Below the pieces are notes generated by a model that was given only the letters and a program-made list of their open reading frames with translations, was not told the origin of the DNA and searched no databases. A program made the position numbers and the translations under genes. Of a DNA stretch of 64,000 bases, positions 35,874 through 57,175 are shown piece by piece. The stretch is from Dehalococcoidia bacterium (lineage in GTDB: Bacteria > Chloroflexota > Dehalococcoidia > SHYD01). The DNA lies in NCBI GenBank assembly GCA_965261835.1, contig OZ253478.1, forward strand, positions 2,337,267-2,401,266, read 5' to 3'. Positions within the stretch are counted from its first letter, which is position 1. Each line of letters begins with the position of its first letter.

Positions 35874-35878
35874 GTCTA

Positions 35879-36035
35879 CCCCCGTCATTGCGAGGAGCCT
35901 GCGACGTGGCAATCCGGGGTGGGGTGGCCGGCCGGTCGCGGGGAGTGTCCCCTGCCCCCGCTTCCCCAAGCGCCCCGCCCCCACCCCAGATTGCTTCGCT
36001 GCGGCTCGCAATGACGGGAAGCGGGGGGAGCCGCG
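35879..36035. repeat. ~155-bp long imperfect palindrome (MITE/REP-like element), copy A
   Basis: Terminal inverted repeats CCGTCATTGCGAGG ... CCTCGCAATGACGG; internal complementary arms CAATCCGGGGTGGGG / CCCCACCCCAGATTG; ~95% identical to copy B. Confidence 0.8.
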
Positions 36036-36289
36036 CGTGGGCGTCGAATATATCGCCGAAGGTGGAACCCGGCCAGGCAGCGTCCTTGCAGGCTTGAAGC
36101 GCGTCGCAACCTGCAGAGTGCATGGCAAGTTGCAACTGGCTGGGTTCGCCGGTAGTATCGTCCGCATCAGGCAGGAATGATAGTGCGGGCTGACCGACGA
36201 ATTATGAGTTCCGCATGGGGCTATCAGCTATGGCACCCGATGCAGTAACGGTGTTGCTGAATTTGTAATCGACCGAAAGGAGCGCTGGT

Positions 36290-36772
36290 ATGGCGGGAGG
36301 TCAACATGGGTTTACTTTCACCATCTTTGGACTCTTTGGCGCCGCAATAGTATTCGGAATCCCGTGGCTCGCTGGGAAGATTCTGCCTTTTATGGAATCC
36401 CCCAGCTTGGGCAGCCCGACAGGCTGGGTATTGTGCGGGGTCGGCGGCGTTGCCGGGGTTATTCTAGCCCAGATCGCGCTCACCGGCTGGCACAAAACGT
36501 GGCGGTCATGGGCCACATATGCCCTCCTTGTGGGTTCCATCTATGGAATTTTCGCCATCGCAGGGTGGTACATTGAGGCCAATCCAGACTCGGCCCTGCT
36601 GGAGACAATTACAGAACTGGGCCAAAATTTGTCTTTAGAGCCGGAGAATTTAGTCCTCATATTGTTTGTCGGTATTCCCATAGTGTTTATCGGTATTCCC
36701 ATATTGCTGTCCGTTATATTGTTCGCCCTTGTACTCTGGAAGGGGGACAGCAGCGGGAAATCTCGTCGGTAA
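36290..36772 (+). CDS. small polytopic membrane protein (4-5 TM), lower-GC cargo gene between the two palindromic repeats
   Basis: AAGGAG 7 nt upstream of ATG; Gly/Ile/Phe-rich TM segments; local GC clearly below flanks. Confidence 0.55.
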   Translation: MAGGQHGFTFTIFGLFGAAIVFGIPWLAGKILPFMESPSLGSPTGWVLCGVGGVAGVILAQIALTGWHKTWRSWATYALLVGSIYGIFAIAGWYIEANPDSALLETITELGQNLSLEPENLVLILFVGIPIVFIGIPILLSVILFALVLWKGDSSGKSRR

Positions 36773-36786
36773 CGCGAGGGGGTGGC

Positions 36787-36940
36787 TCTCCCCCCGTCAT
36801 TGCGAGGAGCCCGCGACGTGGCAATCCGGGGTGGGGTGGCCGGCCGGTCGCGGGGAGTGTCCCCTGCCCCCGCTTCCCCACGCGCCCCTCCCCCGCCCCA
36901 GATTGCTTCGCTGCGGCTCGCAATGACGAGAAGCGGGGAG
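36787..36940. repeat. ~155-bp long imperfect palindrome (MITE/REP-like element), copy B
   Basis: Near-identical to copy A over ~150 bp, same orientation, 908 bp downstream. Confidence 0.8.
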
Positions 36941-36996
36941 CCGAGTACCTTGGGCAGCGGCATCTGGTCCGCCGTGTCCGAGTTGAGGATATGGTG

Positions 36997-37833
36997 TTAC
37001 TGGCTATTCCCCTCGCTGCTATTCGCCACCAAATAGTTCACGAAGGCCGAGCAGGCTACAACCATATAGCGAGCTTCAGGGAGCCCCACTTGCGGCGCTT
37101 CCTTTATCCCATGGCGGACGCCATCCTCGTCACTCGTCCAGTTGTACATGTTGTTCCACGCTTGCTTGAGCTGAGGGTGGCCTTCTAGCTTCTGTAGACC
37201 CTTCGCGATATCGGCCTTCGAATCTCCTGCCGCTACCTGGACGGCTGATTCGACTGCCGATATCGACTCTTTGATAGCGTTGCGGAAATCGGGGGTGTTA
37301 CGGTCACTCAGAAGTGTAAGAGCTTGCCTGATATGCTGCGATGCAGCGTGAAATAGGTCCGACAACGAGGCAGCCGCATCAACCGCAGCTAGCTCTGCAT
37401 TATTGGTAATGGGGACTATCGCATTACCGACAAATCTGTAGGCGGACCCTTCCCTGCTTAGCATGTCGTTCGCATCGCTGACGTCCTCTTCGACTTCTCG
37501 CTTGCGCAGAAGATACTCCAAGACAGTGTAGACCTCATCCCAGTTTGCTTCTAAGTACCAGTCCCGAAGGACGTCTATCGCGGTATCAGGGAAACTCGAC
37601 GCAAAATCGGCATTTGGCAATTCGTCAGATGGCAATTCGTCAGAAAGCTTACCCACTATTTCGGTCCATACACTTTTTACTAACCCGTACCCATGAGAAA
37701 AACGCCCCATGACGAAATATCGATCTCGCAGGAAGTTCCAGATTGCATTCCTGAGCCGATCGTCCATCTCTTCAAATTGATGGAGCTGTGACCGGTCGAG
37801 CTTGTAGCCGTGACGTTCGGAGAAGGTTGCCAT
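36997..37833 (-). CDS. hypothetical protein, putative abortive-infection (Abi)/HEPN-like defence protein
   Basis: N-terminus MATFSERHGY...LRNAIWNFL recalls Abi-family N-terminal domains; C-terminal helical region FRNAIKESISAVESAV resembles degenerate HEPN-type motifs; lower GC than surroundings; ATG 37833 preferred (TTG 37851 alternative). Confidence 0.45.
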   Translation of the reverse strand: MATFSERHGYKLDRSQLHQFEEMDDRLRNAIWNFLRDRYFVMGRFSHGYGLVKSVWTEIVGKLSDELPSDELPNADFASSFPDTAIDVLRDWYLEANWDEVYTVLEYLLRKREVEEDVSDANDMLSREGSAYRFVGNAIVPITNNAELAAVDAAASLSDLFHAASQHIRQALTLLSDRNTPDFRNAIKESISAVESAVQVAAGDSKADIAKGLQKLEGHPQLKQAWNNMYNWTSDEDGVRHGIKEAPQVGLPEARYMVVACSAFVNYLVANSSEGNSQ

Positions 37834-37989
37834 GAAGCTATTATGCCACAATCTATGGCCGTTAAATCAGATGGAGAATCGTCACGCTCCATGACAACTG
37901 CCCAGTGTGCGCTCACCCAATTGGGGTACGCTACAATAACAGGCACACGAACAGCCGCACGCGGCCCGGTTAGGTGAGGGCAGGGCGCC

Positions 37990-39615
37990 ATGAATAACGC
38001 AGAACTTATCGTCAAGATGCTCGAGGCGGCAGGCGTGCGCTGGGTCTTCGGCATCCCCAGCGGCCCGGTGCTGCCCCTGATCGAAGCGCTGCGGCACAGC
38101 TCGATCCGCTACGTGCTGACCGCCAACGAAACCTCGGCCGGGTTCATGGCGCACACCGTGGGCGCCATGAGCGGTGTGCCGGGCGTCTGCGTGTCCACGT
38201 TGGGCCCCGGCGCCACCAACCTTGCCACCGGGGTCGGCGCGGCGTGGCTGGACCGGGCGCCGGTGATCGCCATCACCTGCAACGTGGAGACGGCTTGGCT
38301 CGACCGGCGGGTTCAGATGCGCATCGACCACCACGCGCTATTCGCGCCGCTGACCAAGGCGAGTCTCCCGCTGCGGCGCGACCGGGTAGCAGAGCGGTTG
38401 GGGCAGGCGCTGGCCCTGTGCCGGGCCGAACCGCCCGGTCCGGTGCACCTCGACCTGCCGGAGGACGTGGGCCTGGCGCCTGCCTCCGAGACCACTGCGC
38501 CGCCCGACGCCGCGGTGGCGCCGGCGGCGGCGCTGCCGCCCATCGGCCCGGACGTGCTGGCTGCGCTGGCCGCCGCATTGCAGCGCAGCCAACGGCCGCT
38601 GCTGGTGGGCGGGCTGGCCTTGACCAGAACCAAGAGCCGCCAGCGCTTACTGGAGTTCATCGAACGTCAACACCTGCCCTTTGCCCTCACGCTTCACGCC
38701 AAAGGGTTCCTGCCTGAGAGCCATCCCAATTACGTGGGCGTCATTGGCCGGGCGCGCCGCAGCGACGTCGCGGCCTTCGTGCGCCAGGCCGATCTCATCA
38801 TCGGCATGGGTTATGACCCCATCGAGATCAACTACGAAGAATGGGTGGGCGCGATCCCCGTCATGCACCTGAGCACTGAGATTGCCGACGTCGCCGCGCC
38901 GGTCCGTACCCTGCTGAACGCCGGGGGCGACCTGGAAGCCGCCTGGCCGGCCTTGGCAGCCTTGCCGCCGCAGCAACATGCGTGGACCGTTGGGGAATTC
39001 ACCGCGCACCGGCGCGCGCTGGAGCGCGCGTTGCGGCCGGAGCGGCCGGAGCGGCCCGTGAACCATGGCCTCGCTCCCCATGACGTGCTCGATGCGCTCC
39101 GGGCGCGGCTGCCTACGGACGCGATCCTGACCTACGACGTGGGGGCCCATACCCACCAGATCGCTACCCAATGGCGCACCGACGAACCCCACACCTGCTT
39201 CTCCACCAATGGCTGGTCGTCTATGGGGTTCGGGCTGCCGGCCACCTACGCGGCCAAGCTCGTCCACCCCAATCGCGTGGTGGTAGGCGTGGTGGGCGAT
39301 GGGTGCTTCCAGATGACGGTGGGCGAGGTCAGCGTGGCAAAACGCCTGGGTTTGGCCGCGCCGGTGGTGGTGCTGAACGACGGCTGGCTGGGCCTGCTGA
39401 AAGTGAAGCAGGAACGCAAGGGCTATGGGCTGTCCGGGGTGGACATCGGCGAGCCAGCGGTGCCGCCGTCCGACTATTTTGGCGTGCCATGCCGCGCCGT
39501 CCGCAATGCAGACGAGCTGACGGCGGCCCTGGATTGGGCGCTCACCCTCGAAGGCCCCAGCGTCATTGAGGCGTTGGTCGACGTGGCGCCCTACTCCACC
39601 ACCGTCTACGACTGA
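37990..39615 (+). CDS. thiamine-pyrophosphate-dependent enzyme, acetolactate-synthase-large-subunit-like
   Basis: N-terminal TPP-pyrimidine domain (GVRWVFGIPSGPVLPL), central domain, C-terminal TPP-binding motif GDGCFQM...N; 541 aa. Confidence 0.8.
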   Translation: MNNAELIVKMLEAAGVRWVFGIPSGPVLPLIEALRHSSIRYVLTANETSAGFMAHTVGAMSGVPGVCVSTLGPGATNLATGVGAAWLDRAPVIAITCNVETAWLDRRVQMRIDHHALFAPLTKASLPLRRDRVAERLGQALALCRAEPPGPVHLDLPEDVGLAPASETTAPPDAAVAPAAALPPIGPDVLAALAAALQRSQRPLLVGGLALTRTKSRQRLLEFIERQHLPFALTLHAKGFLPESHPNYVGVIGRARRSDVAAFVRQADLIIGMGYDPIEINYEEWVGAIPVMHLSTEIADVAAPVRTLLNAGGDLEAAWPALAALPPQQHAWTVGEFTAHRRALERALRPERPERPVNHGLAPHDVLDALRARLPTDAILTYDVGAHTHQIATQWRTDEPHTCFSTNGWSSMGFGLPATYAAKLVHPNRVVVGVVGDGCFQMTVGEVSVAKRLGLAAPVVVLNDGWLGLLKVKQERKGYGLSGVDIGEPAVPPSDYFGVPCRAVRNADELTAALDWALTLEGPSVIEALVDVAPYSTTVYD

Positions 39616-41633: not shown

Positions 41634-42509
41634 TTGCACCGTTTCGACTACTACACCCCCGCAACGGTAGCGGAAGCCGTCGAACTCCTTAGCACTAAGG
41701 GAGACGGCGGTAAGGTATTGGCGGGCGGCACAGACCTCATGCCGCAGATGAAGGAGCGGGGCCGTCACCCCAAGTACATCGTCAGCATCAAGAATATCGA
41801 GGAACTACGCAGCGTTAGCTACAGCGCGAGCGATGGGCTTACGGTTGGCGCCGGGATGAGGATGACCGCCCTGCAGCGCGAGGCGTCGGTCAAAAGCAAT
41901 TACGACGTCATCGTTCAGGGCGCTGAGCTCATTGGCTCACTGCAAACCCAGAACTTGGCTACCATTGGCGGGAACGTCTGCAATGCGGCGCCCTCCGCCG
42001 ATGCCGTCCCCGCGTTCGTTATCTTGGACGCCCAAGCCATGATTGCGGGGCCGAATGGCAGCCGCACGGTGCCACTCACCGAGGTGATCACCGGCCCAGG
42101 CATGACCAGCTTGGCGCCGAATGAGATGCTCACCAGCCTCAGCGTAGCGTCACCGCTACCCCGCAGCGCCGGTGCCTATCTACGTCACGTTCCTCGCAAA
42201 GAGCTGGACATCGCCGTTGCCGGCGTGGGAGTGTACATCCAGTTGGACGAAGCCAAGGAACGCGTTACCCACGCCCGAGTGTGCCTCGCGTCGGTAGCGC
42301 CGATCCCCATGCGGGCTGAACAGACGGAAGCGGCGCTGATGGGCCAAGCCGTCACGCCGGAACTCATCGAGCAGGCAGGCCAGGTTGCGGCGGGCGAGTC
42401 GCGCCCGATCTCCGACCAGCGTGGTTCCGCGGCGTTCCGGCGGCAGTTGGTGAAAGCCCTGACCGTCAAGACCCTCACGGATGCCGTAAACCGGATCAAA
42501 AGCAGCTAA
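41634..42509 (+). CDS. coxM: xanthine-dehydrogenase-family FAD-binding subunit (CoxM-like)
   Basis: 291 aa; FAD-binding domain (KVLAGGTDLMPQMK) plus CO-dehydrogenase flavoprotein C-terminal domain. Confidence 0.85.
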   Translation: MHRFDYYTPATVAEAVELLSTKGDGGKVLAGGTDLMPQMKERGRHPKYIVSIKNIEELRSVSYSASDGLTVGAGMRMTALQREASVKSNYDVIVQGAELIGSLQTQNLATIGGNVCNAAPSADAVPAFVILDAQAMIAGPNGSRTVPLTEVITGPGMTSLAPNEMLTSLSVASPLPRSAGAYLRHVPRKELDIAVAGVGVYIQLDEAKERVTHARVCLASVAPIPMRAEQTEAALMGQAVTPELIEQAGQVAAGESRPISDQRGSAAFRRQLVKALTVKTLTDAVNRIKSS

Positions 42510-42546
42510 AGCGATAGTGTAAGCAAAGTAATCATTAGGTGAGCCA

Positions 42547-43011
42547 ATGGCGAAACAGATTTTTCGACTCAACGTCAACAACTTCGACTACGAAGTCTTT
42601 GTAGAACCGAACCGGTGCCTCCACGAGGTCATCCGAGAGGAGATCGGGCTAACCGGTACCAAAGAGGGCTGCGGCACCGGCGATTGCGGCGCATGCACGC
42701 TGTGGCTGGACGGAGAACCAGTGACCTCCTGCCTAGTGCTCGCGGGTGAGGGTGAAGACGTCCCGATCACGACCATCGAGGGGCTGGCCCAAGGCGATAC
42801 GCTCCACCCGGTTCAAGCGGCCTTTGTGGAGTACGGCGGGTTGCAGTGCGGCTTCTGCATCCCTGGCATGCTGATGTCGGCAGCCGCAGTGCTCAAGGAG
42901 CACCCCCACGCCACGTCAGACGAGATCCGACGCGGCATCGCCGGCAACCTCTGCCGATGCACCGGTTACACCAAGATCGTTGAAGCCATCGCAGCCGTAG
43001 CCAAGAACTAA
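42547..43011 (+). CDS. coxS: (2Fe-2S)-binding small subunit (CoxS-like)
   Basis: 154 aa; plant-type ferredoxin motif CGTGDCGAC and second cluster motif CGFCIPG...CRCTGY. Confidence 0.9.
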   Translation: MAKQIFRLNVNNFDYEVFVEPNRCLHEVIREEIGLTGTKEGCGTGDCGACTLWLDGEPVTSCLVLAGEGEDVPITTIEGLAQGDTLHPVQAAFVEYGGLQCGFCIPGMLMSAAAVLKEHPHATSDEIRRGIAGNLCRCTGYTKIVEAIAAVAKN

Positions 43012-43020
43012 GGAGGTCGC

Positions 43021-45309
43021 ATGACTACCACCTATCGAGCCGTCCATCAGCGTCTACCACGGTTAGAAGGCCCCGCCAAAGTCAGTGGCGGGACGGTCTA
43101 CACCGCGGACGTACAGATTCCCAACATGGCGCACGCCAAGGTATTGCATGCGCCCTACACCCACGCCATGATCACGAAGCTGGACACCTCCAAGGCCGCG
43201 AGCTATCCGGGCGTGGTGGGCGTGTTCACCGCCGCGGACCTGCCGCCGCACCTGGCACGCGACAGCGCCAACCGTCTGAACACCATTCTGGCGGACAAAG
43301 AGGTGATGTACTACGGACAGCCCATAGCCGCGGTGGTGGCGCTGGAGCCGCACATTGCCGAGGAAGCGCTCGACCTCATTACCGTGGAGTACGAAGAGCT
43401 CCCGGTAGTGATGGACATCCTGGATGCGTTGAAGCCCGACTCGCTGCCCGTGCGCCACTCCATGGAGGGCATCGACCGCTCCGAGCTGAAGGCGCACACC
43501 ACGGTCACCGAGGAGGCAGAGGAGGAAGAGCAGGCCTCGCCCAATATCACTCACCGCCTGGTATGGAGCCGCGGCGATGTTGAGCAGGCGTTCAAAGACT
43601 CCGACGTCGTCATCGAGCGAGAGTACCGGGCGTCTTGGGTGCACCAAGGCTACATCGAGACCATGGGCGCCGTTGTCGATTGCGACATGAACGGCAACTA
43701 CAAGGTCTGGACGAGCACCCAAGGCGACTTCCCTACCCGTGAAGGCCTTGCCAAGCTTCTGGGCGTTCCGGAGACCAAGATCGTAGTGGACTTCGTGGAG
43801 ATGGGCGGCGGCTTCGGCGCCAAGATCCAGCCCTATGCGGCCGCCGTGCCGGCAGTGCTGGCCCGTATCCTGCGCCGTCCGATTAAGTTCATCATGAGCC
43901 GGAGTGAAGACCTGCGCTCGGCAGACCCTGCGCCCGGCGCTTACTTCTGGCTCAAGACCGCCGCCATGAAGGACGGCACCCTCACCGCATTGAAGGCCAC
44001 GGCCGCTTACGACTCCGGTTCATTCCCTGGCAGCCCGCTGTTGGCCGGCGCCAACCTGCTGGGCAGCTACTACAAGTGCCCCAACCTGGAGATCGAAGGG
44101 CTGGAGGTCATCACCAACAAAGTGAGCCAGGGCGCACTGCGAGCGCCGGGCACCCCCCAGGCCACCTTCGCCATCGACTCTAACATGGAGCTCATGGCCA
44201 AGGCGTTGGGGATGGATTCTCTGGAGCTCCGCCGGAAGAACGTGGTCACTGAAGGTGACCCTATGGCCAACGGCCGGCCTTTCGGCAGGGTTGGCGGCGT
44301 GGAAGTACTAGACGCCCTGAAAGAGACCGAATTCTGGAAGAACCGCAACGACCGCCCGGAGCTGCCCGGCAAGAAGGTCGGTGTGGGCATTGGCCTCGGT
44401 GGCTGGCTGGGCGGCGCCGCACCGTCCAGCGCATCCGTCCTGCTTAACCAGGATGGCACCGCGAGCGTTCTGGTGGGCGCCAATGACATCAGCGGCACCA
44501 ACACCTCCTTCGGGCAAATCACGGCGGAGGTCCTGGGCCTCTCACCGGATAAAGTGAGCGTCCGCACCGGCAGCACGGATGCTGCCCCCTACGCCGGCTT
44601 CAGTGCGGGCAGCAAGACCCTGCGCACCGTAGGTCTCTCGGTGGAGATGGCGGCCACGGACGCCCGAGACCAGATGTTCAAGCTGGTAGCGCAGCGCTTG
44701 GAGTGCAACGCCGACGATCTAGAGGCTGCGGACGGCCAGATCCGGGTGAAGGGATCGCCCGACAAAGCTATCAGTCTTGAGGTACTGGGCACCATGACCA
44801 CCAGCTACGGCTCACCGGCGCCGGTGGTACTGGGCCGCGGCCATTCGGGTTCCCCCCCGATGGCGCCCGGCTTCTCGCTGCAGGGCGTGAAAGTGGCCGT
44901 AGATCCCGAGACCGGCCAAGTAGATATTCTGGACGCCGTGTGCGTGCAGGATGTGGGCTTTGCCATCAACCCCCTGTCCGTGGAGAGCCAGCTCCAGGGC
45001 GGTATGGTTCAGTCGCTCTCCATCGGCTTCTCCGAAGAGATGGTGTGGGACGACAAGGGCGTGCTCCGCAACCCCAGCTTGCTGGACTACCGGCTGCCCA
45101 CCGCGCTGGATATCCCTGACATCGAGGTCAAGCTGGTGGAGGTACCGGTGCCGGGTGCTGGCCCCTTTGGCGCCAAAGGCATCGGCGAGCCACCCATCGC
45201 TCCCGGCTGCGCGGCATTGGTTAACGCCATTGAAGACGCAGTGGGCAGCCGGGTATACACGATGCCCGCCACCGCCGAGCGCATCCTTACCGCAATGGGC
45301 AAGATCTAA
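43021..45309 (+). CDS. coxL: molybdopterin-binding large subunit of a xanthine-dehydrogenase / aerobic CO-dehydrogenase family enzyme (CoxL-like)
   Basis: 762 aa; aldehyde oxidase/xanthine dehydrogenase a/b hammerhead and Moco-binding domains; M-S-L gene order. Confidence 0.85.
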   Translation: MTTTYRAVHQRLPRLEGPAKVSGGTVYTADVQIPNMAHAKVLHAPYTHAMITKLDTSKAASYPGVVGVFTAADLPPHLARDSANRLNTILADKEVMYYGQPIAAVVALEPHIAEEALDLITVEYEELPVVMDILDALKPDSLPVRHSMEGIDRSELKAHTTVTEEAEEEEQASPNITHRLVWSRGDVEQAFKDSDVVIEREYRASWVHQGYIETMGAVVDCDMNGNYKVWTSTQGDFPTREGLAKLLGVPETKIVVDFVEMGGGFGAKIQPYAAAVPAVLARILRRPIKFIMSRSEDLRSADPAPGAYFWLKTAAMKDGTLTALKATAAYDSGSFPGSPLLAGANLLGSYYKCPNLEIEGLEVITNKVSQGALRAPGTPQATFAIDSNMELMAKALGMDSLELRRKNVVTEGDPMANGRPFGRVGGVEVLDALKETEFWKNRNDRPELPGKKVGVGIGLGGWLGGAAPSSASVLLNQDGTASVLVGANDISGTNTSFGQITAEVLGLSPDKVSVRTGSTDAAPYAGFSAGSKTLRTVGLSVEMAATDARDQMFKLVAQRLECNADDLEAADGQIRVKGSPDKAISLEVLGTMTTSYGSPAPVVLGRGHSGSPPMAPGFSLQGVKVAVDPETGQVDILDAVCVQDVGFAINPLSVESQLQGGMVQSLSIGFSEEMVWDDKGVLRNPSLLDYRLPTALDIPDIEVKLVEVPVPGAGPFGAKGIGEPPIAPGCAALVNAIEDAVGSRVYTMPATAERILTAMGKI

Positions 45310-45336
45310 ACGCCCCAATAGACAGAGACAGACAAT

Positions 45337-45376
45337 GCAGGAGGCCCGCCGGAGATTATCCGGCGGGCCTGCTGCA
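45337..45376. terminator. bidirectional hairpin GCAGGAGGCCCGCCGG-AGATTAT-CCGGCGGGCCTGCTGC
   Basis: 16-bp stem (one mismatch) between convergent coxL and cyclase genes. Confidence 0.5.
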
Positions 45377-45397
45377 TTAGTCACACTTTGGTCCTTG

Positions 45398-46342
45398 TCA
45401 GAACACCGCCACCGGGTTCACCGGCGATCCGGTCCCATACTGGATGCGCAGCGGATTGATGGTGAGCATAAACTCCCAGCGGTTGTGCTGCGCACAGGCC
45501 GCCGCTAGCTCCTCAAGGTTGCAGTTATCTATCAGCCATAAGCCCATGCCGGCAATGCCCACTTGGTGCACCGGTCGCACCATATCCTGATATCCGGACG
45601 GTATCTGGTCATTGGCGGTGTCCGATCCCAGCATCGCGATGTCCCGTTCTCGGAACCAGGGCAGGCAGGACGCTTGCGGGCCCGTCCGGCTCTCGAGAGC
45701 GCTCGGCCCTTCTACTAAGCGCCGCTTGAAGTCACCGGTGCGGATAAGCAGGATGTCGCCCGGCCCTACTTGCACATTGCAGGCCTGCGCGGCGGCATCC
45801 AGTTCGTCGGGCCAGATGGCATCGCCAAACTCCACCCAGTCCACCCCACGCAGCCGCGCGATGTCCAGTAAAACGCCCCGGCTTACTACGCCGTCCTTGA
45901 GGAGCTCGATTGACCCCACGGTTGCGCCCTCCCGCGTGGTGATTAGCTGGGAAGGCCGGCCGTTGTACAACTTGCCGCGCCAGAAAATGTGCGACAAGCT
46001 ATCAACGTGCGTGATCATGAAACCGTGGAACACCATGCCGATGTAGTCGCTAGCCGCCTGCAACTCGCCCGGTTGCTGCTCGTGGAGAGCATACTCCTCA
46101 CCGCTGTACGCCATGAAGTGCGAGACCGTCTGGCGCACGTCCACGGCGTTCTGCGTGGTGAGCACTCGGGCGCAGGAAACCGGCGCGCCTTCCTGCACCA
46201 GACCCGCGGCCTGCCGTACTTTCTCCGGCGTCACAAGGTTCATCGTGCCTAATTGGTCATCCGGGCCCCAACGGCCCCAGTTGCTTAGCGTCTCGAAGTA
46301 TCCTAACGTGGTTGCTTCGTCCGGAGGCATGCGATCTGCCAT
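45398..46342 (-). CDS. cyclase family protein (kynurenine-formamidase-like fold)
   Basis: 314 aa; putative-cyclase family HxxxDxxxH-containing region (HGFMITHVDSLSH). Confidence 0.75.
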   Translation of the reverse strand: MADRMPPDEATTLGYFETLSNWGRWGPDDQLGTMNLVTPEKVRQAAGLVQEGAPVSCARVLTTQNAVDVRQTVSHFMAYSGEEYALHEQQPGELQAASDYIGMVFHGFMITHVDSLSHIFWRGKLYNGRPSQLITTREGATVGSIELLKDGVVSRGVLLDIARLRGVDWVEFGDAIWPDELDAAAQACNVQVGPGDILLIRTGDFKRRLVEGPSALESRTGPQASCLPWFRERDIAMLGSDTANDQIPSGYQDMVRPVHQVGIAGMGLWLIDNCNLEELAAACAQHNRWEFMLTINPLRIQYGTGSPVNPVAVF

Positions 46343-50022: not shown

Positions 50023-50099
50023 AGGAGGGTTTGTGGTCGGGGTGGTCGGACTCGAACCGACGACCTCGTCGTCCCGAACGACGCGCGCTACCAGACTGC
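50023..50099 (-). tRNA. tRNA-Pro (anticodon CGG)
   Basis: Manual fold of reverse complement: C1:G72, A73, anticodon loop TTCGGGA, T-loop GGTTCGAGTCC, CCA encoded. Confidence 0.85.
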
Positions 50100-50313
50100 G
50101 CCACACCCCGTCCGGCGCATCATAACATAGGGCAGTGTCTCCGACAACGCGCAACCAACACGCCGCGCCGCGATGCTGGCTTCACGCCGCGCACGACGCC
50201 GGTTTACTTGACTGGCAAGAGTTAGCGTGACAAAATGAACCGCACATGGACCAGTACAGTTTCAACCAGAGCATATCGGCGCTGGCTTTGTTTGGGAATA
50301 CAAGTCAGGAGGA

Positions 50314-51372
50314 GTGTCAATGGCAAAAATTGTTAGGGGGCTAGGAACCTCCCATACCCCCATGATTAGCGAGCCCCCCGAGTTCTGGCTGAGGCATGGC
50401 GAGGGCGACAAACGCTCTCGGGAGTTGATCTCTCCCAGAAGCTTCTCCGTAGTACCCTACGATGAGTTGGAAGCGGAGGCGGGCGATCAGTTCGAACCAC
50501 AACTGACTCTGGAAAATTTCACCAAACAGTACAATCAACTCCAGCGGGGTGTTGCCGAGGTGACCAAGGCCCTCAAGGAGGCCAACCCCGATGTACTGAT
50601 CATCGTGACAGATGACCAGGACGAGATCATGTTCGACGACAACATGCCAGCGTTCTACATCTACTGGGGCGAGAAAATGAAGCTGCTCGCTCGGGAGGTC
50701 CCCGATACTGCGCCGGAGTTCATCAAGGCGGCCATGTGGGGCTATGGTGATGTCACCATGGACGTGCCGGTGGATGCGGAGCTGGGACAGCACCTCATCG
50801 AATACCTCACTGAGAGCGACTTCGATATCGCCCATGGCCGCTACCTCAACGACGAGTACGGCGGCGCCATTGGCCCGGCCGGTTATGTGCACTGGAAGCG
50901 GGAGACCAAGAAACGGCCTCACGGCATGCCCCACGGCCTGAGCTACGTGATCCGGCGCGTTTTCGACAACAACCCCTACATCCCCATCGTGCCCGTCATA
51001 CAGAACACCTGCTACCCGCCCAATCAGCCCACCCCGCGCCGGTGCTATGCCCTGGGCAAGGCGATCCGCTCGGCAGTTGAGGCTTACGGGAAGGACAAGC
51101 GTGTGGCCATAATGGGATCAGGCGGTCTGAGCCACTTCGTGCTGGACGAGGAGACCGACCGCATGGCCATCCGGGCCATGGAGACCAAGGACGCCGAGGC
51201 GCTCTGCAATCTACCGAAGGAACGGCTCAACTCTGCCAGCTCTGAGATCCGTAACTGGATCACTACCGCTGGCGCGTGTGAGCACCTCGATTTCGAATTA
51301 TTCGAATACGTCCCGGTCGCCCGTACCCCAGCAGGGTCAGGCGGTGGATGGGGCTTCAGCAAGTGGGAGTAG
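50314..51372 (+). CDS. class III extradiol ring-cleavage dioxygenase, LigB/GalA family (paralog 1)
   Basis: N-terminal GTSHTPMIS and C-terminal IMGSGGLSHFVLDEE motifs match LigB/GalA-type catalytic subunit; 352 aa. Confidence 0.75.
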   Translation: MSMAKIVRGLGTSHTPMISEPPEFWLRHGEGDKRSRELISPRSFSVVPYDELEAEAGDQFEPQLTLENFTKQYNQLQRGVAEVTKALKEANPDVLIIVTDDQDEIMFDDNMPAFYIYWGEKMKLLAREVPDTAPEFIKAAMWGYGDVTMDVPVDAELGQHLIEYLTESDFDIAHGRYLNDEYGGAIGPAGYVHWKRETKKRPHGMPHGLSYVIRRVFDNNPYIPIVPVIQNTCYPPNQPTPRRCYALGKAIRSAVEAYGKDKRVAIMGSGGLSHFVLDEETDRMAIRAMETKDAEALCNLPKERLNSASSEIRNWITTAGACEHLDFELFEYVPVARTPAGSGGGWGFSKWE

Positions 51373-51432
51373 TACCCGCGTAGCGAATACCCGCAGAACT
51401 GCACGTATGGAATACCTGCAAGGAGGCGCATC

Positions 51433-52491
51433 ATGGCAAAGATAGTCCTAGGAATTGGCACTTCTCACACCCCGATGATCAGCATGCCGCCCGATATCTG
51501 GGGCACCCACGGCGAGGTGGTGGACAAGCGGAGTAAGGAGCTCGTTTCTCCCAAGCAAGGGCGCGTCCTGCCTTATGAAGAACTCCTTGCGGAAGCAAAT
51601 CACGCATTTGATGACCAGCTCAACATGGAGGTCTTCGAGGAGAAACACGCGCGCCTGCAGGCCGCCGTTGCTGAGTTGGCCAAGACCCTGCGTGAAGTGA
51701 AGCCGGACGTGTTGGTTATCGTTACTGATGACCAAGATGAAAACTACTTCGAAGACAACATGCCAGCGTTCAATATCTATTGGGGAGATACCATCAAGCT
51801 GCTTCCCCGCAAGCCACCGGCCAATGCATCGCCTTCTGCCATCGCGTCGGCCTGGGGGTACGGTGAAAAGGAAATGGATTTCCCGGTGGATAGCGTCCTA
51901 GGCCAGCACCTCATCGAGTACATGACCGAGGCTGATTTCGACGTATCCCATTCCCGCTACATTAAGGAAGAACCGTACGGTGGCACCATTGGCCCGGCCG
52001 GTTACGTCTGGTGGAAACGGGAAACAGCGCCCAAGCAGCACGGGATGGGACATGGTCATGCCTTTGTAGCCAAGCGCTTAATGAACGAGGACCCCTACAT
52101 CCCGTTCGTTCCCATCAACCAGAACACCTGCTACCCGCCCAATGTGCCCACGCCGCGCCGCAGTTACGCCTTTGGCAAAGCCCTCCGAGACGCCATCAAC
52201 GCCTGGGACAGCGACAAGCGCGTGGCGGTACTAGCCTCCGGTGGTCTCAGCCACTTCGTGCTAGACGAAGAGATAGACCAGCAGCTCATCAAGGGGATGC
52301 GGGAGAAGAACGGCGAGATCCTCACCTCCCTGCCTCGAGAACGGCTGCAGTCCGCAGCCTCTGAGATCAGGAACTGGATCACCACCGCGGCGGCCTCAGA
52401 CCACCTAGACTTCGAGTTAATCGACTACGTTCCAGTGCCTCGGACGCCCGCAGGCACCGGCGGTGGTTGGGGCTTCGTGCGGTGGACGTAA
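51433..52491 (+). CDS. class III extradiol ring-cleavage dioxygenase, LigB/GalA family (paralog 2)
   Basis: Roughly two-thirds identical to paralog 1 (unaided visual estimate); GTSHTPMIS...LASGGLSHFVLDEE. Confidence 0.75.
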   Translation: MAKIVLGIGTSHTPMISMPPDIWGTHGEVVDKRSKELVSPKQGRVLPYEELLAEANHAFDDQLNMEVFEEKHARLQAAVAELAKTLREVKPDVLVIVTDDQDENYFEDNMPAFNIYWGDTIKLLPRKPPANASPSAIASAWGYGEKEMDFPVDSVLGQHLIEYMTEADFDVSHSRYIKEEPYGGTIGPAGYVWWKRETAPKQHGMGHGHAFVAKRLMNEDPYIPFVPINQNTCYPPNVPTPRRSYAFGKALRDAINAWDSDKRVAVLASGGLSHFVLDEEIDQQLIKGMREKNGEILTSLPRERLQSAASEIRNWITTAAASDHLDFELIDYVPVPRTPAGTGGGWGFVRWT

Positions 52492-52517
52492 CCCGCAACA
52501 GTTAGCAAAAGCATACT

Positions 52518-52560
52518 AAAGGTGGTAGTATCAACAACCTGATACTACCACCTTTATTTT
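52518..52560 (+). terminator. rho-independent terminator between dioxygenase paralogs 2 and 3
   Basis: Perfect 16-bp stem AAAGGTGGTAGTATCA / TGATACTACCACCTTT with 6-nt loop followed by ATTTT. Confidence 0.8.
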
Positions 52561-52580
52561 CACCCTAGGAGGAACGGAAC

Positions 52581-53633
52581 ATGGCAGAAATTGTGCTTGG
52601 TATGGGGACATCTCACACCCCAATGATTAGCATGCCCCCGGAGTTTTGGCTTATGCATGGGGAACGCCAGGACGTGCACCTACGGGAGCTGGTTTCCCCG
52701 CGCACAGGTAAGGTGGTTGCTTATGACGAGCTGCTCGCAGAGGCCGATCCCGGCATCGCGAGCACCCTCACCGCTGAGCACTTCAAGGAACAATACGATC
52801 AACTGCAGCATGGCGTGGCTGAATTGAGCAAGACCCTGCGCGAGGTTAACCCGGATGCAGTGATCATTGTCAGCGACGACCAAGATGAGCTTCTTTTTGA
52901 AGACAACATGCCGTCCTTCCTGGTCTATTGGGGCGAATCGGTGAAGCTGCTGCCATGGCCGGTGACGGAGACTGCCTCCCCCGCCATTAAAGCCGCGCTC
53001 TCCGGGTACGGCGACGTTGAAATGGACGTCCCAGTCAATGCAGAGCTCGGTAAACACCTCATCGAGTACCTTACCGAGGCGGATTTCGACATATCCCACT
53101 CTCGTTACTTGAAGGACGAGTACGGCGGCTCAATCGGTCCGACCGGCTACGTCTGGTGGAAGCGTGAGACCAAACCGCGACCGCACGGCATCGGTCACGG
53201 CTATTCATTCGTGGTCAAGCGCATCATGGACAATAAGCCCATCCCCATTGTGCCGGTCCTGCAAAACACGTGCTATCCACCCAACCAGCCCACGCCCAAG
53301 CGTTGCTACGCGCTCGGTAAAGCTATCAAAGCGGCCGTAGAGGCATGGGACAGCAATGCACGCGTAGCCATTATGGCTTCCGGCGGGCTGAGCCATTTTG
53401 TGCTAGACGAAGACATCGACCAGCAGCTCATACGAGGGATGCGGGAGAAGAACGGCGAGATCCTGAGCTCCCTTCCCAAAGAGCGGCTGCAGTCTGCCTC
53501 TTCCGAAATCCGGAACTGGATCACGACCTCCGCGGCCTGCGAACATCTGGACTTCGAGATGGTGGACTACGTCCCCGTCGCCCGGACGCCGGCCGGTACC
53601 GGCGGCGGCTGGGGCTTTGCCCGCTGGACGTAG
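52581..53633 (+). CDS. class III extradiol ring-cleavage dioxygenase, LigB/GalA family (paralog 3)
   Basis: GTSHTPMIS...MASGGLSHFVLDED; closest to paralog 1. Confidence 0.75.
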   Translation: MAEIVLGMGTSHTPMISMPPEFWLMHGERQDVHLRELVSPRTGKVVAYDELLAEADPGIASTLTAEHFKEQYDQLQHGVAELSKTLREVNPDAVIIVSDDQDELLFEDNMPSFLVYWGESVKLLPWPVTETASPAIKAALSGYGDVEMDVPVNAELGKHLIEYLTEADFDISHSRYLKDEYGGSIGPTGYVWWKRETKPRPHGIGHGYSFVVKRIMDNKPIPIVPVLQNTCYPPNQPTPKRCYALGKAIKAAVEAWDSNARVAIMASGGLSHFVLDEDIDQQLIRGMREKNGEILSSLPKERLQSASSEIRNWITTSAACEHLDFEMVDYVPVARTPAGTGGGWGFARWT

Positions 53634-53655
53634 CCAGATTAGGAACGCCAACCGC

Positions 53656-53690
53656 AAAGGGCTGTGCCGCTGGCACAGCCCTTTCTGCTG
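53656..53690 (+). terminator. hairpin AAAGGGCTGTGCC-GCTG-GCACAGCCCTTT
   Basis: 12-bp perfect stem directly after paralog 3 stop; weak U-tract. Confidence 0.55.
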
Positions 53691-53786
53691 CATGAAGGAC
53701 GGCTCCATTGACATCCCGCTCGCTTTGCGCGTAGGGTAGGCAGGCACTAGCCCTTACACAACTAATCACTCTTTTGGAGGCATATC

Positions 53787-54497
53787 ATGGCTCGGATCGA
53801 AGTCCCGCAGTCAATTCTGGACCGCTACAAGAAAGTCTGCTCCGCCACGGTGTATTCAGCGGTACGAAACCGCGGCGCCACACTCTGCTTCATGGAAGAC
53901 GTCAACTGCATGATACCCGGAACACGCCTCGCAGCTCGGGCCCGTACCCTCCGCTGCCTGCCTCCCCGCCCCGACCTGCACGAGGAAGTGGTCATCGGTG
54001 AGGGGTCGCCGGAGTACCGGGCCATGGCCCTCTGCGGCCCTGGCGACTGCCTGGTGGTGGATACCATGCGGCGACCGTACTCCACCGTAGTTGGAGACGT
54101 GAAGCTAATCCAGCTCAAAATGCAGAACGCCGACGGCTTCGTGACCGACGGCGCGATCCGCGACCTCGATGTCGTCTCTGAGTACGGCCTCGCGATCTTC
54201 GCCGCAAAACGGACGCCCACCGCCCGCGAGTACGGTGAAGCCTTCGAAGAGGACGTGGATATCCAATGCGCTGGCGTACTGGTACGCCCCGGGGACGTGA
54301 TTGTGGGCGACAACGATGGCATCGTGGTGGTGCCCTCGTACATGGCGGAAGAAGTAATTGAGTGGGTGGAGATCCACGAGCAGGCCGAAGACTTCGCGAA
54401 GGAGAAGATAATAGCGGATAACTGCCGCCCGGGCCGCTACTATCCGCCCACCGACGCGCTCAAGAAAGTGATGCTGGAGACGCAAGGCCGGCGCTAG
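53787..54497 (+). CDS. RraA-family protein (class II 4-hydroxy-4-methyl-2-oxoglutarate / 4-carboxy-4-hydroxy-2-oxoadipate aldolase-like)
   Basis: 236 aa; RraA/MenG-like fold ([15 protein letters not shown]); this family includes the LigK/GalC aldolases of meta-cleavage pathways. Confidence 0.75.
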
Positions 54498-54618: not shown

Positions 54619-55887
54619 CTAAGTGGCCGCTTTAGCCGCCGGACGCTCCTGAAGCGTCTCGCGTAGCACCACACCCACCACAAACGCCACAACTAGCCCG
54701 GACAAGCCGATTGCACCGAATGCCACCGCAAAATTGAAGCGCTCGGAAAGCACCGCCACCAACGCCGGACCTATAGTTGCGGCAAGCATGGCCACAAACC
54801 GCCAGATCGCGAAAAAGCGGCCACGAGCACGGGCGGGCGCGAGATCGGACCCCAGCACCTGCATGGTGCCGGAGGTCATGCTCATTGATGCAAGTGAGGC
54901 CGTATATACCACGGCAAAAAGGATGAACGGCACTGGACCCACCGTGGTTGCCGCCAGCAGGACCCCCATGGTTCCAGTCAGGAAAAAGCCGGGCACGATA
55001 ATCTTTTTCCGGCCAAAGCGGTCCATGATTGGCCCCGTGGCAAAGGTGATAGGGAGCGAAACTACTCCGGCAGCAGTGCCCAAAAGACCCAGGACAGCCG
55101 GACCAACCCCATAAGCGTACGCCGCATAGAAGATCACGCTGCCCCCCTGGAAGCCGATCCGTGCAATATTTGCGCAGAACTGGGCCAACAAGAAGACCAA
55201 CATCTGGAACTTCAACAGCTCGCCAATCACCATCCCCCAGTCGCTCTGAGCCTTCTGTCCTGGCTGCGCCGCCGGGCCTTCCTGTGCAAAACGCGCCGGG
55301 TTGGTCTCCTGAATCAGCCAGAAGCTGGGCAGGATGGACAGGAAAACCATGACGCCAAAGATGATAAATGGGATGCGTATGTCGAAGCCCGCGGCCAAAA
55401 ATCCGCCTACCGCGGGTCCCATCAACATGCCCGCGCGGCCAAGGCCCGTCATCCAAGTAATCTGTCGCCCGCGCTCACGGCTGCCAGCGAGATCCGTGAT
55501 CACCGCTAAGCGGCTCAGCATCCACATCTGCTCCGCCGCACCTCCGATGAAGCGTAATATCAGCACCTGGGTAAAGTCTTGGCTGAATGCAATCAATGCT
55601 GAAGAAAGTGCCAGCACTATAGGGCCAGTAAGGAGAATGGGCCGCCGCCCAAGCTTGTCCAGCAGGTATCCCGTGGGGAACGTAATTGCCATGCCACCAC
55701 CCTGGTAAAGAATGATGGCCAAGGAGGCTACCGCGAAGGAGATGTCGAAAGATTTCACATAGACAGGCAACACCGGTGCAATGATGCCCGTTCCTAGCGA
55801 AAGAACGAATGCCGGCAGGTAAATAGAGAGCGTTTGCTGAATAGACAGCGTTCCGCTGTCATCCTGCTGCTGCTGTGGCTGTGCCAT
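54619..55887 (-). CDS. MFS transporter (paralog a)
   Basis: 422 aa; 12 TM; motif LDKLGRRP; N-terminus near-identical in pattern to the next gene. Confidence 0.8.
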   Translation of the reverse strand: MAQPQQQQDDSGTLSIQQTLSIYLPAFVLSLGTGIIAPVLPVYVKSFDISFAVASLAIILYQGGGMAITFPTGYLLDKLGRRPILLTGPIVLALSSALIAFSQDFTQVLILRFIGGAAEQMWMLSRLAVITDLAGSRERGRQITWMTGLGRAGMLMGPAVGGFLAAGFDIRIPFIIFGVMVFLSILPSFWLIQETNPARFAQEGPAAQPGQKAQSDWGMVIGELLKFQMLVFLLAQFCANIARIGFQGGSVIFYAAYAYGVGPAVLGLLGTAAGVVSLPITFATGPIMDRFGRKKIIVPGFFLTGTMGVLLAATTVGPVPFILFAVVYTASLASMSMTSGTMQVLGSDLAPARARGRFFAIWRFVAMLAATIGPALVAVLSERFNFAVAFGAIGLSGLVVAFVVGVVLRETLQERPAAKAAT

Positions 55888-55906
55888 TCCCCGCTTTAAC
55901 CTAACA

Positions 55907-57175
55907 CTACGCGGCTACAGGCTCGGCATCGCGCTTCATGGTTTCCTTCAAAACGAACGCAACCAGTAGTGATACCGCAAATGCAGCAAGCGCTGAGGAC
56001 AAAAAAGCCGTCCCATAGTTGACCTGGTCTGCTAGAACCGCAAAAATGGCGGGTCCTATTAGGGAGCCCATTTGAGCGATGAACCGCCAGATGCCAAAGA
56101 ACATGCCCCGTGATGCCACCGGAGCCACATCTGCACCCAGGGTCTGCATGGTGCCGTTAGTAGTACTTAGCGTGGCCTGCACCAGCAAGAAGGTAACCAC
56201 AAACGCTTCAAAAGGCAACAAAAAGAACGCGGACAGCCCCATTGTGAAAATCGCCAGGCCGTACAACGCAAAGCCAGGTACCACGATCACCTTGCGGCCG
56301 TAGCGGTCCATGAAATAACCGGTGAGGAAGGGGATGGGAAGCACCAGCACTCCTACCGCTGCGTTCAGGAACCCAAGGACCTTGGGGCCAATACCATAAG
56401 CGTACACTGCATAGAGGTTAAATGTACCGGCCTCGCCGCCTCTACATACGGTGGCAAAGAACTGAATGATCAAGAACGTGACCATCTGCACGGTAAATAT
56501 AGCCGTCATGAGGGTGCGGAACGCGCCGGCCGGCGGTGGCGCGCCCTCAACTTGTGGCGACCGTTGAGGCGCCTCAGACGCCTCAGGGGCCGTCTCCTTC
56601 ACTATCTTGAAGCTTGGGGCAACGGCAAGGAAGCAGAGAAGGCCGTGCACAATAAATGGCAGGCGGATATCAAAACCTGCCGCCAATAACCCTCCAACGG
56701 CGGGGCCCAGCATCATGCCGGCCCGCTGCATCCCAATCATCCACGTGACCTGCCGGGCCAGGTTGTTACTGCGCGCCGTGTCTGCAATTACTGCAAGCCT
56801 GGCCTGCATCCAGAGCTGATTGGCTACGCCGCCAATAAATCGGAAGAGCACCAACTCCGGAAATGTCCCCGCAAACGCGGTGAGGATCGACGACAGGCCG
56901 AGCGCCACCGGGCCGGCTAGGATGATTGGGCGCCGGCCGATTTTATCCATGAGGTAACCGGCAGGCAATGTGGCGGCAAGCGAACCAAGCTGGTACGCAA
57001 TGATGATCAGAGACGCGATACCAAAGGAGATGTTGAAGGACTTGGCGTAGACCGGCAGGACAGGAGCAATAATCCCAGTACCGAGCGCCAGAATAAGAGC
57101 AGGAATGTAAAGCGAGAGGATTTGGTAACGGGAGATGACCCCTTCGCCATCTCGGGCCGGAGTGTCTGACATCAA
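55907..57175 (-). CDS. MFS transporter (paralog b)
   Basis: 422 aa; motif MDKIGRRP; tandem duplicate of 54619-55887. Confidence 0.8.
   Translation of the reverse strand: MMSDTPARDGEGVISRYQILSLYIPALILALGTGIIAPVLPVYAKSFNISFGIASLIIIAYQLGSLAATLPAGYLMDKIGRRPIILAGPVALGLSSILTAFAGTFPELVLFRFIGGVANQLWMQARLAVIADTARSNNLARQVTWMIGMQRAGMMLGPAVGGLLAAGFDIRLPFIVHGLLCFLAVAPSFKIVKETAPEASEAPQRSPQVEGAPPPAGAFRTLMTAIFTVQMVTFLIIQFFATVCRGGEAGTFNLYAVYAYGIGPKVLGFLNAAVGVLVLPIPFLTGYFMDRYGRKVIVVPGFALYGLAIFTMGLSAFFLLPFEAFVVTFLLVQATLSTTNGTMQTLGADVAPVASRGMFFGIWRFIAQMGSLIGPAIFAVLADQVNYGTAFLSSALAAFAVSLLVAFVLKETMKRDAEPVAA

Follow-up and report, generated by a model that had tools for sequence, protein, structure and literature searches.

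Three tandem, diverged genes for putative DesZ-type extradiol dioxygenases in a Dehalococcoidia bacterium

DesZ of Sphingobium sp. SYK-6, whose synthetic gene is printed in the supplement of a published study, has been expressed alone and used as a 3-O-methylgallate ring-opening dioxygenase (PMC11325090). Dioxygenase paralog expansions have already been documented in SAR202/Dehalococcoidia (PMC6123686, PMC6946804), and Colatriano et al. listed 'methylgallate dioxygenases' within the expanded ring-cleaving dioxygenases of SAR202-VII-2 (PMC6123686). Here we analysed a 64,000-nucleotide stretch of a Dehalococcoidia genome (contig OZ253478.1; hereafter the window, to which all positions refer), which carries an array of three LigB-superfamily genes, W1 to W3, followed by an RraA-family gene, gene 4. 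We consider it fairly probable that W1-W3 encode three separately functional DesZ-type extradiol ring-cleavage dioxygenases that work without a LigA-like partner. The four array genes are as follows.

50320..51372, + strand: W1, predicted DesZ-type class III extradiol dioxygenase, 350 aa from ATG, Pfam LigB 82.3 bits
51433..52491, + strand: W2, predicted DesZ-type dioxygenase, 352 aa, Pfam LigB 64.0 bits
52581..53633, + strand: W3, predicted DesZ-type dioxygenase, 350 aa, Pfam LigB 72.4 bits
53787..54497, + strand: gene 4, RraA family, PRK08245/5x15-like subfamily, 236 aa, PF03737 94.8 bits

The open reading frames and Pfam scores (cut-offs: LigB PF02900, 26.3 bits; RraA-like PF03737, 24.5 bits) agreed with a previous sequence-only reading, which had described a tandem trio of ~350-aa LigB-superfamily genes and then an RraA-family gene. 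W1 had been listed with a GTG start (50314-51372, 352 aa); the ATG at 50320 is most likely its start, because GGAGG lies 7 nt 5' of this codon and homologues begin with MAKIV or MAEIV. A GGAGG-type ribosome-binding site was present 5' of each array gene, and the motifs GTSHTPMIS and SGGLSHFVLDE were found in W1, W2 and W3. The layout of three LigB genes, an RraA-like gene, two MFS genes and an SDR gene was found again in three independent ENA assemblies, indicating that the array is not an assembly artefact. No LigA-like partner is encoded at the array: the spacers between the four genes (60, 89 and 153 nt) are too short, and PF02900 was the sole Pfam domain that a Pfam scan detected in each W protein. 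Among the relatives examined, no adjoining LigA-like gene was annotated or called either, so the lack of LigA, once regarded as an unusual pathway layout, is not unusual.

The DesZ protein was obtained by translating the gene in the supplement and stitching the frameshifts left by optical character recognition. The stitched protein of 330 aa starts with MAEIVLGIGTSHGP, contains GNDQMEIF, PHAFGF, NTFYPPNQPT, SGGLTHFV and GTSELKNW, and ends with GFVCWR. A natural protein, P0241, was 98% identical to it across all 330 residues, which validated the reconstruction; its own relatives, from Sphingomonadaceae, carry the JGI label 3-O-methylgallate 3,4-dioxygenase. W1-W3 aligned with P0241 over their whole length at 39-42% identity (W2 42%, W3 39%) and shared with it the motifs GTSH, DQxE, PH(A/G), NTxYPPNQPT, SGGL(S/T)HFV and SE(I/L)xNW. 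These alignments place W1-W3 in the DesZ clade, which is the branch of the LigB superfamily that holds 3-O-methylgallate dioxygenase, and the LigB/GalA-type identity assigned to them previously has to be replaced. A JGI label pools DesZ with LigZ ('OH-DDVA oxygenase/3-O-methylgallate 3,4-dioxygenase'); our sequence comparison was with DesZ.

The array proteins have the LigB-type alpha/beta fold (AlphaFold2 model, predicted local distance difference test score 93). Their subclade carries a ~20-aa insertion, YGGxIGPxGYVxWKRET, predicted to form a beta-hairpin, which is shared by a Pigmentiphaga homologue and absent from DesZ and from plasmid homologues. Given the 39-42% identity and this extra insertion, the function of DesZ cannot be assumed for W1-W3. 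The NCBIfam equivalog and subfamily models for protocatechuate (PCA) 4,5-dioxygenase and GalA/DesB all scored W1-W3 below their cut-offs; NF009901 was the best (78-84 bits vs 290), followed by NF009904 (45-52 bits vs 412) and NF009912 (36-45 bits vs 837). Many DesZ-like LigB-fold proteins (P0262, P0310, P0335, P0344; H9, H17, H19) bear the NCBI name 'protocatechuate 3,4-dioxygenase', which usually denotes an unrelated intradiol enzyme and is here probably a propagated misnomer.

An alignment of 39 family members showed that H12, D98, D99, Q100, E102, H205, N229, H272 and E309 are invariant, and W1, W2 and W3 each retain every conserved active-site residue. H12, in GTSHTP, corresponds to LigB His12, the first Fe ligand; alignments to LigB, DesB and MhpB matched H205 to LigB His127, H272 to LigB His195 and E309 to LigB Glu242. 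The second Fe ligand (LigB His61, DesB His59 and the MhpB His) lay opposite the invariant Gln100 in phmmer and profile alignments, in which PDVVILVYNDH pairs with PDVLIIVTDDQ and the array motif is DDQxE. D99, Q100, E102, H205, N229, H272 and E309 were also kept in relatives of 27-39% identity (the Rhodococcus, Bradyrhizobium, Aminobacter, Polymorphobacter and Novosphingobium plasmid homologues), which have DQxE. Among the 150 best cluster representatives, position 100 was Gln in 100, His in 20 and Glu in 8, and this His/Gln exchange within the clade supports the positional homology of Gln100 with LigB His61.

Thus the His/His/Glu triad is not intact, with Gln100 in place of LigB His61 in all three proteins. 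DesZ/P0241 shares every motif residue with W1-W3, so that Gln at the second-ligand position is a trait of the DesZ branch. The loss of an iron ligand had been proposed as the mark of a non-catalytic paralog; DesZ, in use as an active enzyme, has the identical Gln, so the missing second His is no argument for dead enzymes, and we rejected non-catalytic paralogs on this ground. The array proteins are probably real, diverged and catalytic ring-cleavage dioxygenases.

Several active-site residues were lost in seven other representatives of the DesZ clade (P0397, P0409, P0431, P0439, P0463, P0466 and P0492), for example with Phe or Arg instead of His12, Glu instead of Gln100, Gln instead of Glu309 and Val instead of His272. 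These residue-depleted proteins may be non-catalytic paralogs or partner subunits.

The three copies had been described as well below 100% identical, and the measured amino-acid identities were 62% (W1-W2), 68% (W2-W3) and 69% (W1-W3), with nucleotide identities of 65-69%. Synonymous sites between the copies were saturated (proportion of synonymous differences, pS, 0.68-0.77), dN/dS was 0.12-0.18, and the longest exact DNA stretch common to copies was 29 nt, so that neither a recent duplication nor gene conversion is indicated. W3 was closer to proteins of other genomes (82% to L086b, 79% to L002) than to W1 and W2 (68-69%); W2 was 74% identical to both L086a and L086b, and the best matches of W1, at 69%, were L001 and equally W3 and L086b. 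The paralog trees were built by neighbour-joining without bootstraps, and our argument rests on the identity values. The saturation of synonymous sites, and the greater closeness of W3 to orthologues elsewhere than to its neighbours, show that the duplication is ancient; all copies are under purifying selection. A recent duplication without divergence, raised earlier as a possibility, and an effect of gene dosage were ruled out by the same two observations.

Copy number was compared across 79 related loci: ~69 had a single copy, ~10 had a second copy within the flank, and three copies were found only in the window. In a related Dehalococcoidia genome (L087, equivalent to L003), a tandem pair occupies the same chromosomal position and is preceded, like the window array, by Lit and TP-methylase/MazG genes. 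Another locus, L086, has two copies, then an insertion sequence (IS) element and a BNR gene, and then a 236-aa RraA-like orthologue; the IS element, of the rve-family transposase type, and the BNR-repeat gene lie inside at 11184-13502 of L086, the closest related genome. Conserved LigB tandem pairs occurred in L086, L087/L003, L007 and L016-18.

A homology search returned 3881 relatives at E<=1e-5, and an exhaustive HMMER search gave 193 clusters (50% identity) at E<=1e-30. Close relatives came overwhelmingly from Dehalococcoidia and SAR202 cluster metagenome-assembled genomes (MAGs), with a minority from Rokubacteria, Acidimicrobiales, Gemmatimonadaceae and one cultured betaproteobacterium, Pigmentiphaga humi. 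NCBI labels them 'extradiol ring-cleavage dioxygenase', and JGI uses either '3-O-methylgallate 3,4-dioxygenase' or the pooled label quoted above. One related locus, L017, comes from the SAR202-VII-2 MAG of PMC6123686.

Relatives were repeatedly found in aromatic-catabolic neighbourhoods. Amidohydro_2, the family of LigJ, LigI, LigW and LigY, was present in 32 of the 79 loci, and Rieske oxygenases with LigXa_C and the SDR family in 15 each; other frequent neighbours were luciferase-like monooxygenases (LLM), thiamine pyrophosphate (TPP)-dependent enzymes, alpha/beta and dienelactone hydrolases, and quinone oxidoreductase. Cultured bacteria carry a recurring cassette in which an amidohydrolase gene and a DesZ-like gene are accompanied by a tandem pair of RraA-family genes and by a bona fide 4-carboxy-4-hydroxy-2-oxoadipate (CHA) aldolase gene, at times with RidA and a PobA-type 4-hydroxybenzoate 3-monooxygenase. 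A distant Rhodococcus ruber homologue adjoins genes for PIG-L (the family of the hydratase GalB), CHA aldolase and FAH, and the Pigmentiphaga humi gene is flanked by genes for a TPP enzyme, solute-binding proteins and the beta subunit of a ring-hydroxylating dioxygenase. As read from their gene content, these contexts fit the cleavage of carboxylated catechols or gallates into an oxalomesaconate/CHA-type lower pathway.

The cassette was located in L080 (8252-11299), L081 (6079-8825), L082 (6980-10957) and L083 (6928-10994), and also, with RraA-like open reading frames, in L016-L021, L029, L036 and L076, covering Proteobacteria, Actinobacteria and SAR202 MAGs. When the tandem RraA pairs of L082, L080 and L017 were aligned, one member had WGG and the other WGD/E in all three. 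This position may match the aldolase metal site, and the pattern suggests that the pairs are heteromers with one degenerate subunit. An acetolactate-synthase-like TPP enzyme family occurred less than 4 kb from DesZ-like genes in 13 other loci and was present as well in the Aminobacter, Novosphingobium KA1 and Pigmentiphaga contexts (members include L063 5093-6775, L083 13843-15510 and L085 15512-16912); its member in the window (37990-39615) lies 11 kb upstream of the array, with unrelated genes between.

We propose the following mechanism. In each W enzyme, His12 and Glu309 would coordinate a divalent metal ion (presumably Fe(II)), with Gln100, or possibly Glu102, standing in for LigB His61, and His272 and His205 would serve as the catalytic acid/base residues. 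The vicinal-diol ring opened would be one such as that of gallate, methylgallate, protocatechuate or a biphenyl-type lignin/humic fragment, and the ring-fission products would be carboxylated 2-oxo or 2-hydroxy dienoates. Their further processing would fall to enzymes encoded elsewhere, for instance of the kinds found beside relatives (Amidohydro_2 hydratases, decarboxylases and hydrolases); if the pathway exists, its remaining genes must be encoded outside the window. The RraA-like protein might act as a metal-dependent aldolase or oxaloacetate decarboxylase, a step on which we place little weight. The three copies would broaden the range of substituted catechols cleaved by the cell, which is their most likely role given the great age of the duplication and the purifying selection on every copy; on the same evidence, the earlier suggestion that each paralog has its own substrate is plausible.

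Several points weigh against this proposal. The canonical second His ligand is not present in W1-W3, and no Gln-type member has a solved structure, so that we infer the metal site. The Chloroflexi subclade has no assayed member, and a substrate cannot be read from sequence. A complete pathway would call for hydratase, hydrolase or dehydrogenase genes, which the window lacks, and none of the syringate/5,5'-dehydrodivanillate (DDVA) pathway genes (DesA/LigM, LigX, LigY and LigW) was found among its Pfam-scanned genes. A strong hairpin splits W2 from W3 in what we presume to be an operon, and relatives of gene 4 lie mostly in unrelated neighbourhoods.

Gene 4 had been called an RraA/LigK-like aldolase. 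The RraA family held, and the LigK/GalC kind did not: gene 4 fell below the cut-offs for LigK (TIGR02798, 53.8 bits vs 304.5; NF006731, 66.1 vs 179) and also for the RraA ribonuclease E regulator (NF006875, 48.4 vs 136; TIGR02998, 36.3 vs 241). Its best NCBIfam matches were NF006093 (155.8 bits vs 208) and an FAH-fusion model. The closest solved relative was PDB 5x15_A (E 6.6e-26), presumably Streptomyces coelicolor RraAS2, ahead of the CHA aldolase 3noj (E 3e-11); as judged by these scores, gene 4 is not a LigK/GalC orthologue. G103, R125, D126 and E201 were invariant in an alignment of the family (A4), D104 was present in the window protein, and 'airdld' stood opposite 'gvrdtq' of 3noj. D104 and E201 may match the metal-site residues Asp102 and Glu199 of 3noj, and R125 and D126 correspond to the catalytic Arg-Asp dyad of the aldolase. 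With the dyad and two acidic residues kept, an enzymatic role is plausible, and the product is possibly a divalent-metal aldolase or oxaloacetate decarboxylase.

There is an even chance that gene 4 has nothing to do with the dioxygenases, being a housekeeping ribonuclease regulator or oxaloacetate decarboxylase that lies downstream by accident. Its close relatives (n=546) are mainly from Chloroflexi, and those of 59-71% identity had no LigB-like gene within 7-8 kb. Among nine sampled contexts outside the window lineage (for L090, the downstream side), LigB-like genes were near in one, L086, and seven were without any such gene; L088 had a neighbour resembling Amidohydro_2 by sequence inspection, and the other six held M17 peptidase/SmpB, CorA with prophage remnants, UvrD, a toxin-antitoxin pair with hydantoinase, and a phosphodiesterase. 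The 153 nt and strong hairpin between W3 and gene 4, and the RraA regulator names that JGI/NCBI give to some relatives, also favour an unrelated gene. Against it stand the 76% identical orthologue in L086, which lies downstream of the LigB pair despite the IS insertion, the Amidohydro_2-like neighbour in L088, the aldolase residues R125 and D126, and the annotation of some relatives with, or their fusion to, FAH-type domains. At the superfamily level, RraA proteins of other subfamilies recur beside DesZ-like genes in several phyla. A metagenome scan for the RraA-like protein gave three short loci only and no linkage statistics. We rate the case for gene 4 as a pathway aldolase at best evenly balanced.

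Heteromers had been suggested earlier, and the three W proteins might instead form a hetero-oligomer like AmnA/AmnB or CnbCa/CnbCb (2-aminophenol 1,6-dioxygenase), in which one or two copies are structural or regulatory. The genes are in tandem and probably co-expressed, conserved pairs occur elsewhere, solved LigB-fold heteromers are detectable structural relatives of the model, and some wider-clade representatives have lost ligands (e.g. F12/E100/Q309). However, DesZ was expressed alone as the ring-opening step (PMC11325090), about 69 of the 79 related loci are single-copy, so the family works without a partner, and every conserved active-site residue is kept in all three window proteins. 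Because single copies are the rule and all window copies keep the active site, an obligate heteromer is unlikely, and three enzymes with differing substrate preferences are more economical than an obligate AmnAB-like assembly.

It is slightly less likely still that W1-W3 are not dioxygenases and that Gln100 marks another role of the LigB fold, such as isomerisation, hydrolysis or binding without catalysis. The second-ligand His of LigB, DesB and MhpB is opposite an invariant Gln, the NCBIfam dioxygenase models all scored far under their cut-offs, and the LigB fold includes Memo, which is not a dioxygenase. However, DesZ, used as a ring-opening dioxygenase, has GNDQxE at this position (PMC11325090), His and Gln interchange there within the clade, the remaining LigB active-site residues are invariant, and the relatives' neighbourhoods are aromatic-catabolic.

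Recent amplification of the array, or its horizontal acquisition as an island at tRNA-Pro, for which the tRNA-Pro(CGG) gene directly upstream of the array and the horizontal transfer proposed for SAR202 dioxygenases (PMC6123686) could be cited, is very improbable and was rejected, given the saturated synonymous sites between copies, a GC content equal to that of the flanks, no integrase among the Pfam-scanned genes in the array's immediate neighbourhood, and the Lit-MazG-LigB-LigB synteny of L087/L003.

The features around the array are as follows.

50034..50110, - strand: tRNA-Pro(CGG), boundary marker outside the system, directly upstream of the array
50208..50236, + strand: sigma-70-like promoter candidate upstream of W1, TTGACT-17-CAAAAT with TG, from a consensus scan
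52517..52556, + strand: hairpin between W2 and W3, terminator-like or mRNA-stabilising, 17-bp perfect stem, 6-nt loop, then UUUU
53656..53684, + strand: GC-rich 13-bp hairpin just 3' of the W3 stop codon, no U tract
54619..57175, - strand: two tandem MFS transporters (context only), possibly for substrate uptake, MFS_1 165 and 169 bits
57320..58099, + strand: SDR oxidoreductase (context only), Pfam adh_short 187 bits

The hairpin between W2 and W3 (-30.7 kcal/mol, z = -6.0) had been described as a textbook terminator. The strong stem was confirmed; with four U on the + strand the U tract is sub-consensus, and a terminator scan (>=5 T in 8) called this hairpin on the - strand only. Its arm was found only once in the window, which excluded a REP-like repeated element. 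A 20-bp perfect hairpin of unrelated sequence, without a U tract, precedes the W3 orthologue in L086 (9917-9968). This match in position hints that the hairpin before the W3-type gene has kept a function in processing, stabilising or attenuating the transcript rather than in simply terminating it. The promoter candidate is weak, as sigma-70-like sites were as numerous as expected from shuffles. Rfam returned nothing in the array region beyond tRNA-Pro. This tRNA gene sits between the MazG-fusion gene and the array, and in the syntenic L087 a DUF805 gene takes that place. Pfam confirmed the MFS transporter, SDR and LLM genes near the array; the MFS pair adjoins the array in L091-L093 too, and SDR and MFS genes also lie downstream in L087 and L098.

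Other parts of the window carry genes of different kinds. The region 31824-37851 resembles a defence-type island, with genes for a 1349-aa restriction-modification fusion of the Eco57I/N6-methylase type and for a protein with an AbiJ N-terminal domain, and GC is raised to 0.66-0.68 at 32-36 kb. At 41634-46342 there is a molybdenum hydroxylase with a flavin adenine dinucleotide subunit (41634-42509) and a molybdenum cofactor subunit (43021-45309), together with a cyclase-family, kynurenine-formamidase-like protein (PF04199; 45398-46342, - strand). These are possibly genes for N-heterocycle or aromatic oxidation, with no obvious link to the array.

Dehalococcoidia/SAR202-type bacteria have been proposed to play a major part in consuming recalcitrant and terrestrial aromatic carbon, and to our knowledge none of their ring-cleaving enzymes has been characterised. 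The array offers three diverged, clearly related and probably soluble enzymes from one genome, a convenient set for the question of substrate range, and it draws notice to an under-described trait of the DesZ branch, the Gln in place of the second iron-binding His. Otherwise it is an ordinary catabolic cluster, of a family that databases already annotate and that SAR202 genomics papers have mentioned. As a lead, the Gln-containing metal site of the DesZ branch is the most useful, and with it the three-enzyme set for studying subfunctionalisation. A more speculative and rather doubtful extension is that the DesZ-type clade, including W1-W3, uses a non-canonical metal centre (His/Gln/Glu or one containing Glu102), that the Chloroflexota subclade with its additional beta-hairpin has evolved three specificities for humic or lignin-derived polyphenols outside the range of every characterised enzyme, and that the 5x15-like RraA protein is a new aldolase for the products.

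Among known systems, LigK/GalC (3noj) shares with gene 4 the PF03737 fold family and the Arg-Asp dyad; it differs in being only ~26% identical, and gene 4 has an extra insertion at ~60-75. DesB/GalA (PDB 3wku) is unlike the array proteins in its ~420 aa, its fused C-terminal domain and its His second ligand. LigAB (PDB 1b4u/1bou) has a LigA subunit and His61 where the array has Gln; the array proteins further carry a ~40-residue insertion after strand 1 and the Chloroflexi-type insertion, and they reach 36-84 bits with the PCA 4,5-dioxygenase models, whose cut-offs are 290-837. DesZ of SYK-6 and the array proteins are alike in consisting of one chain (330-350 aa) whose gene has no LigA-like neighbour, in their Gln for the second His ligand, and in (D/N)DQxE, SExxNW and the remaining motif set; DesZ is without the ~20-aa insertion of the Chloroflexota-dominated window subclade, and the window is without the syringate or DDVA pathway genes. 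The SAR202/Dehalococcoidia expansions concern the same family, with a proposed role in wider use of recalcitrant aromatics (PMC6123686, PMC6946804); dispersed paralogs were counted in those studies, whereas the array presents three tandem copies at a conserved chromosomal position.

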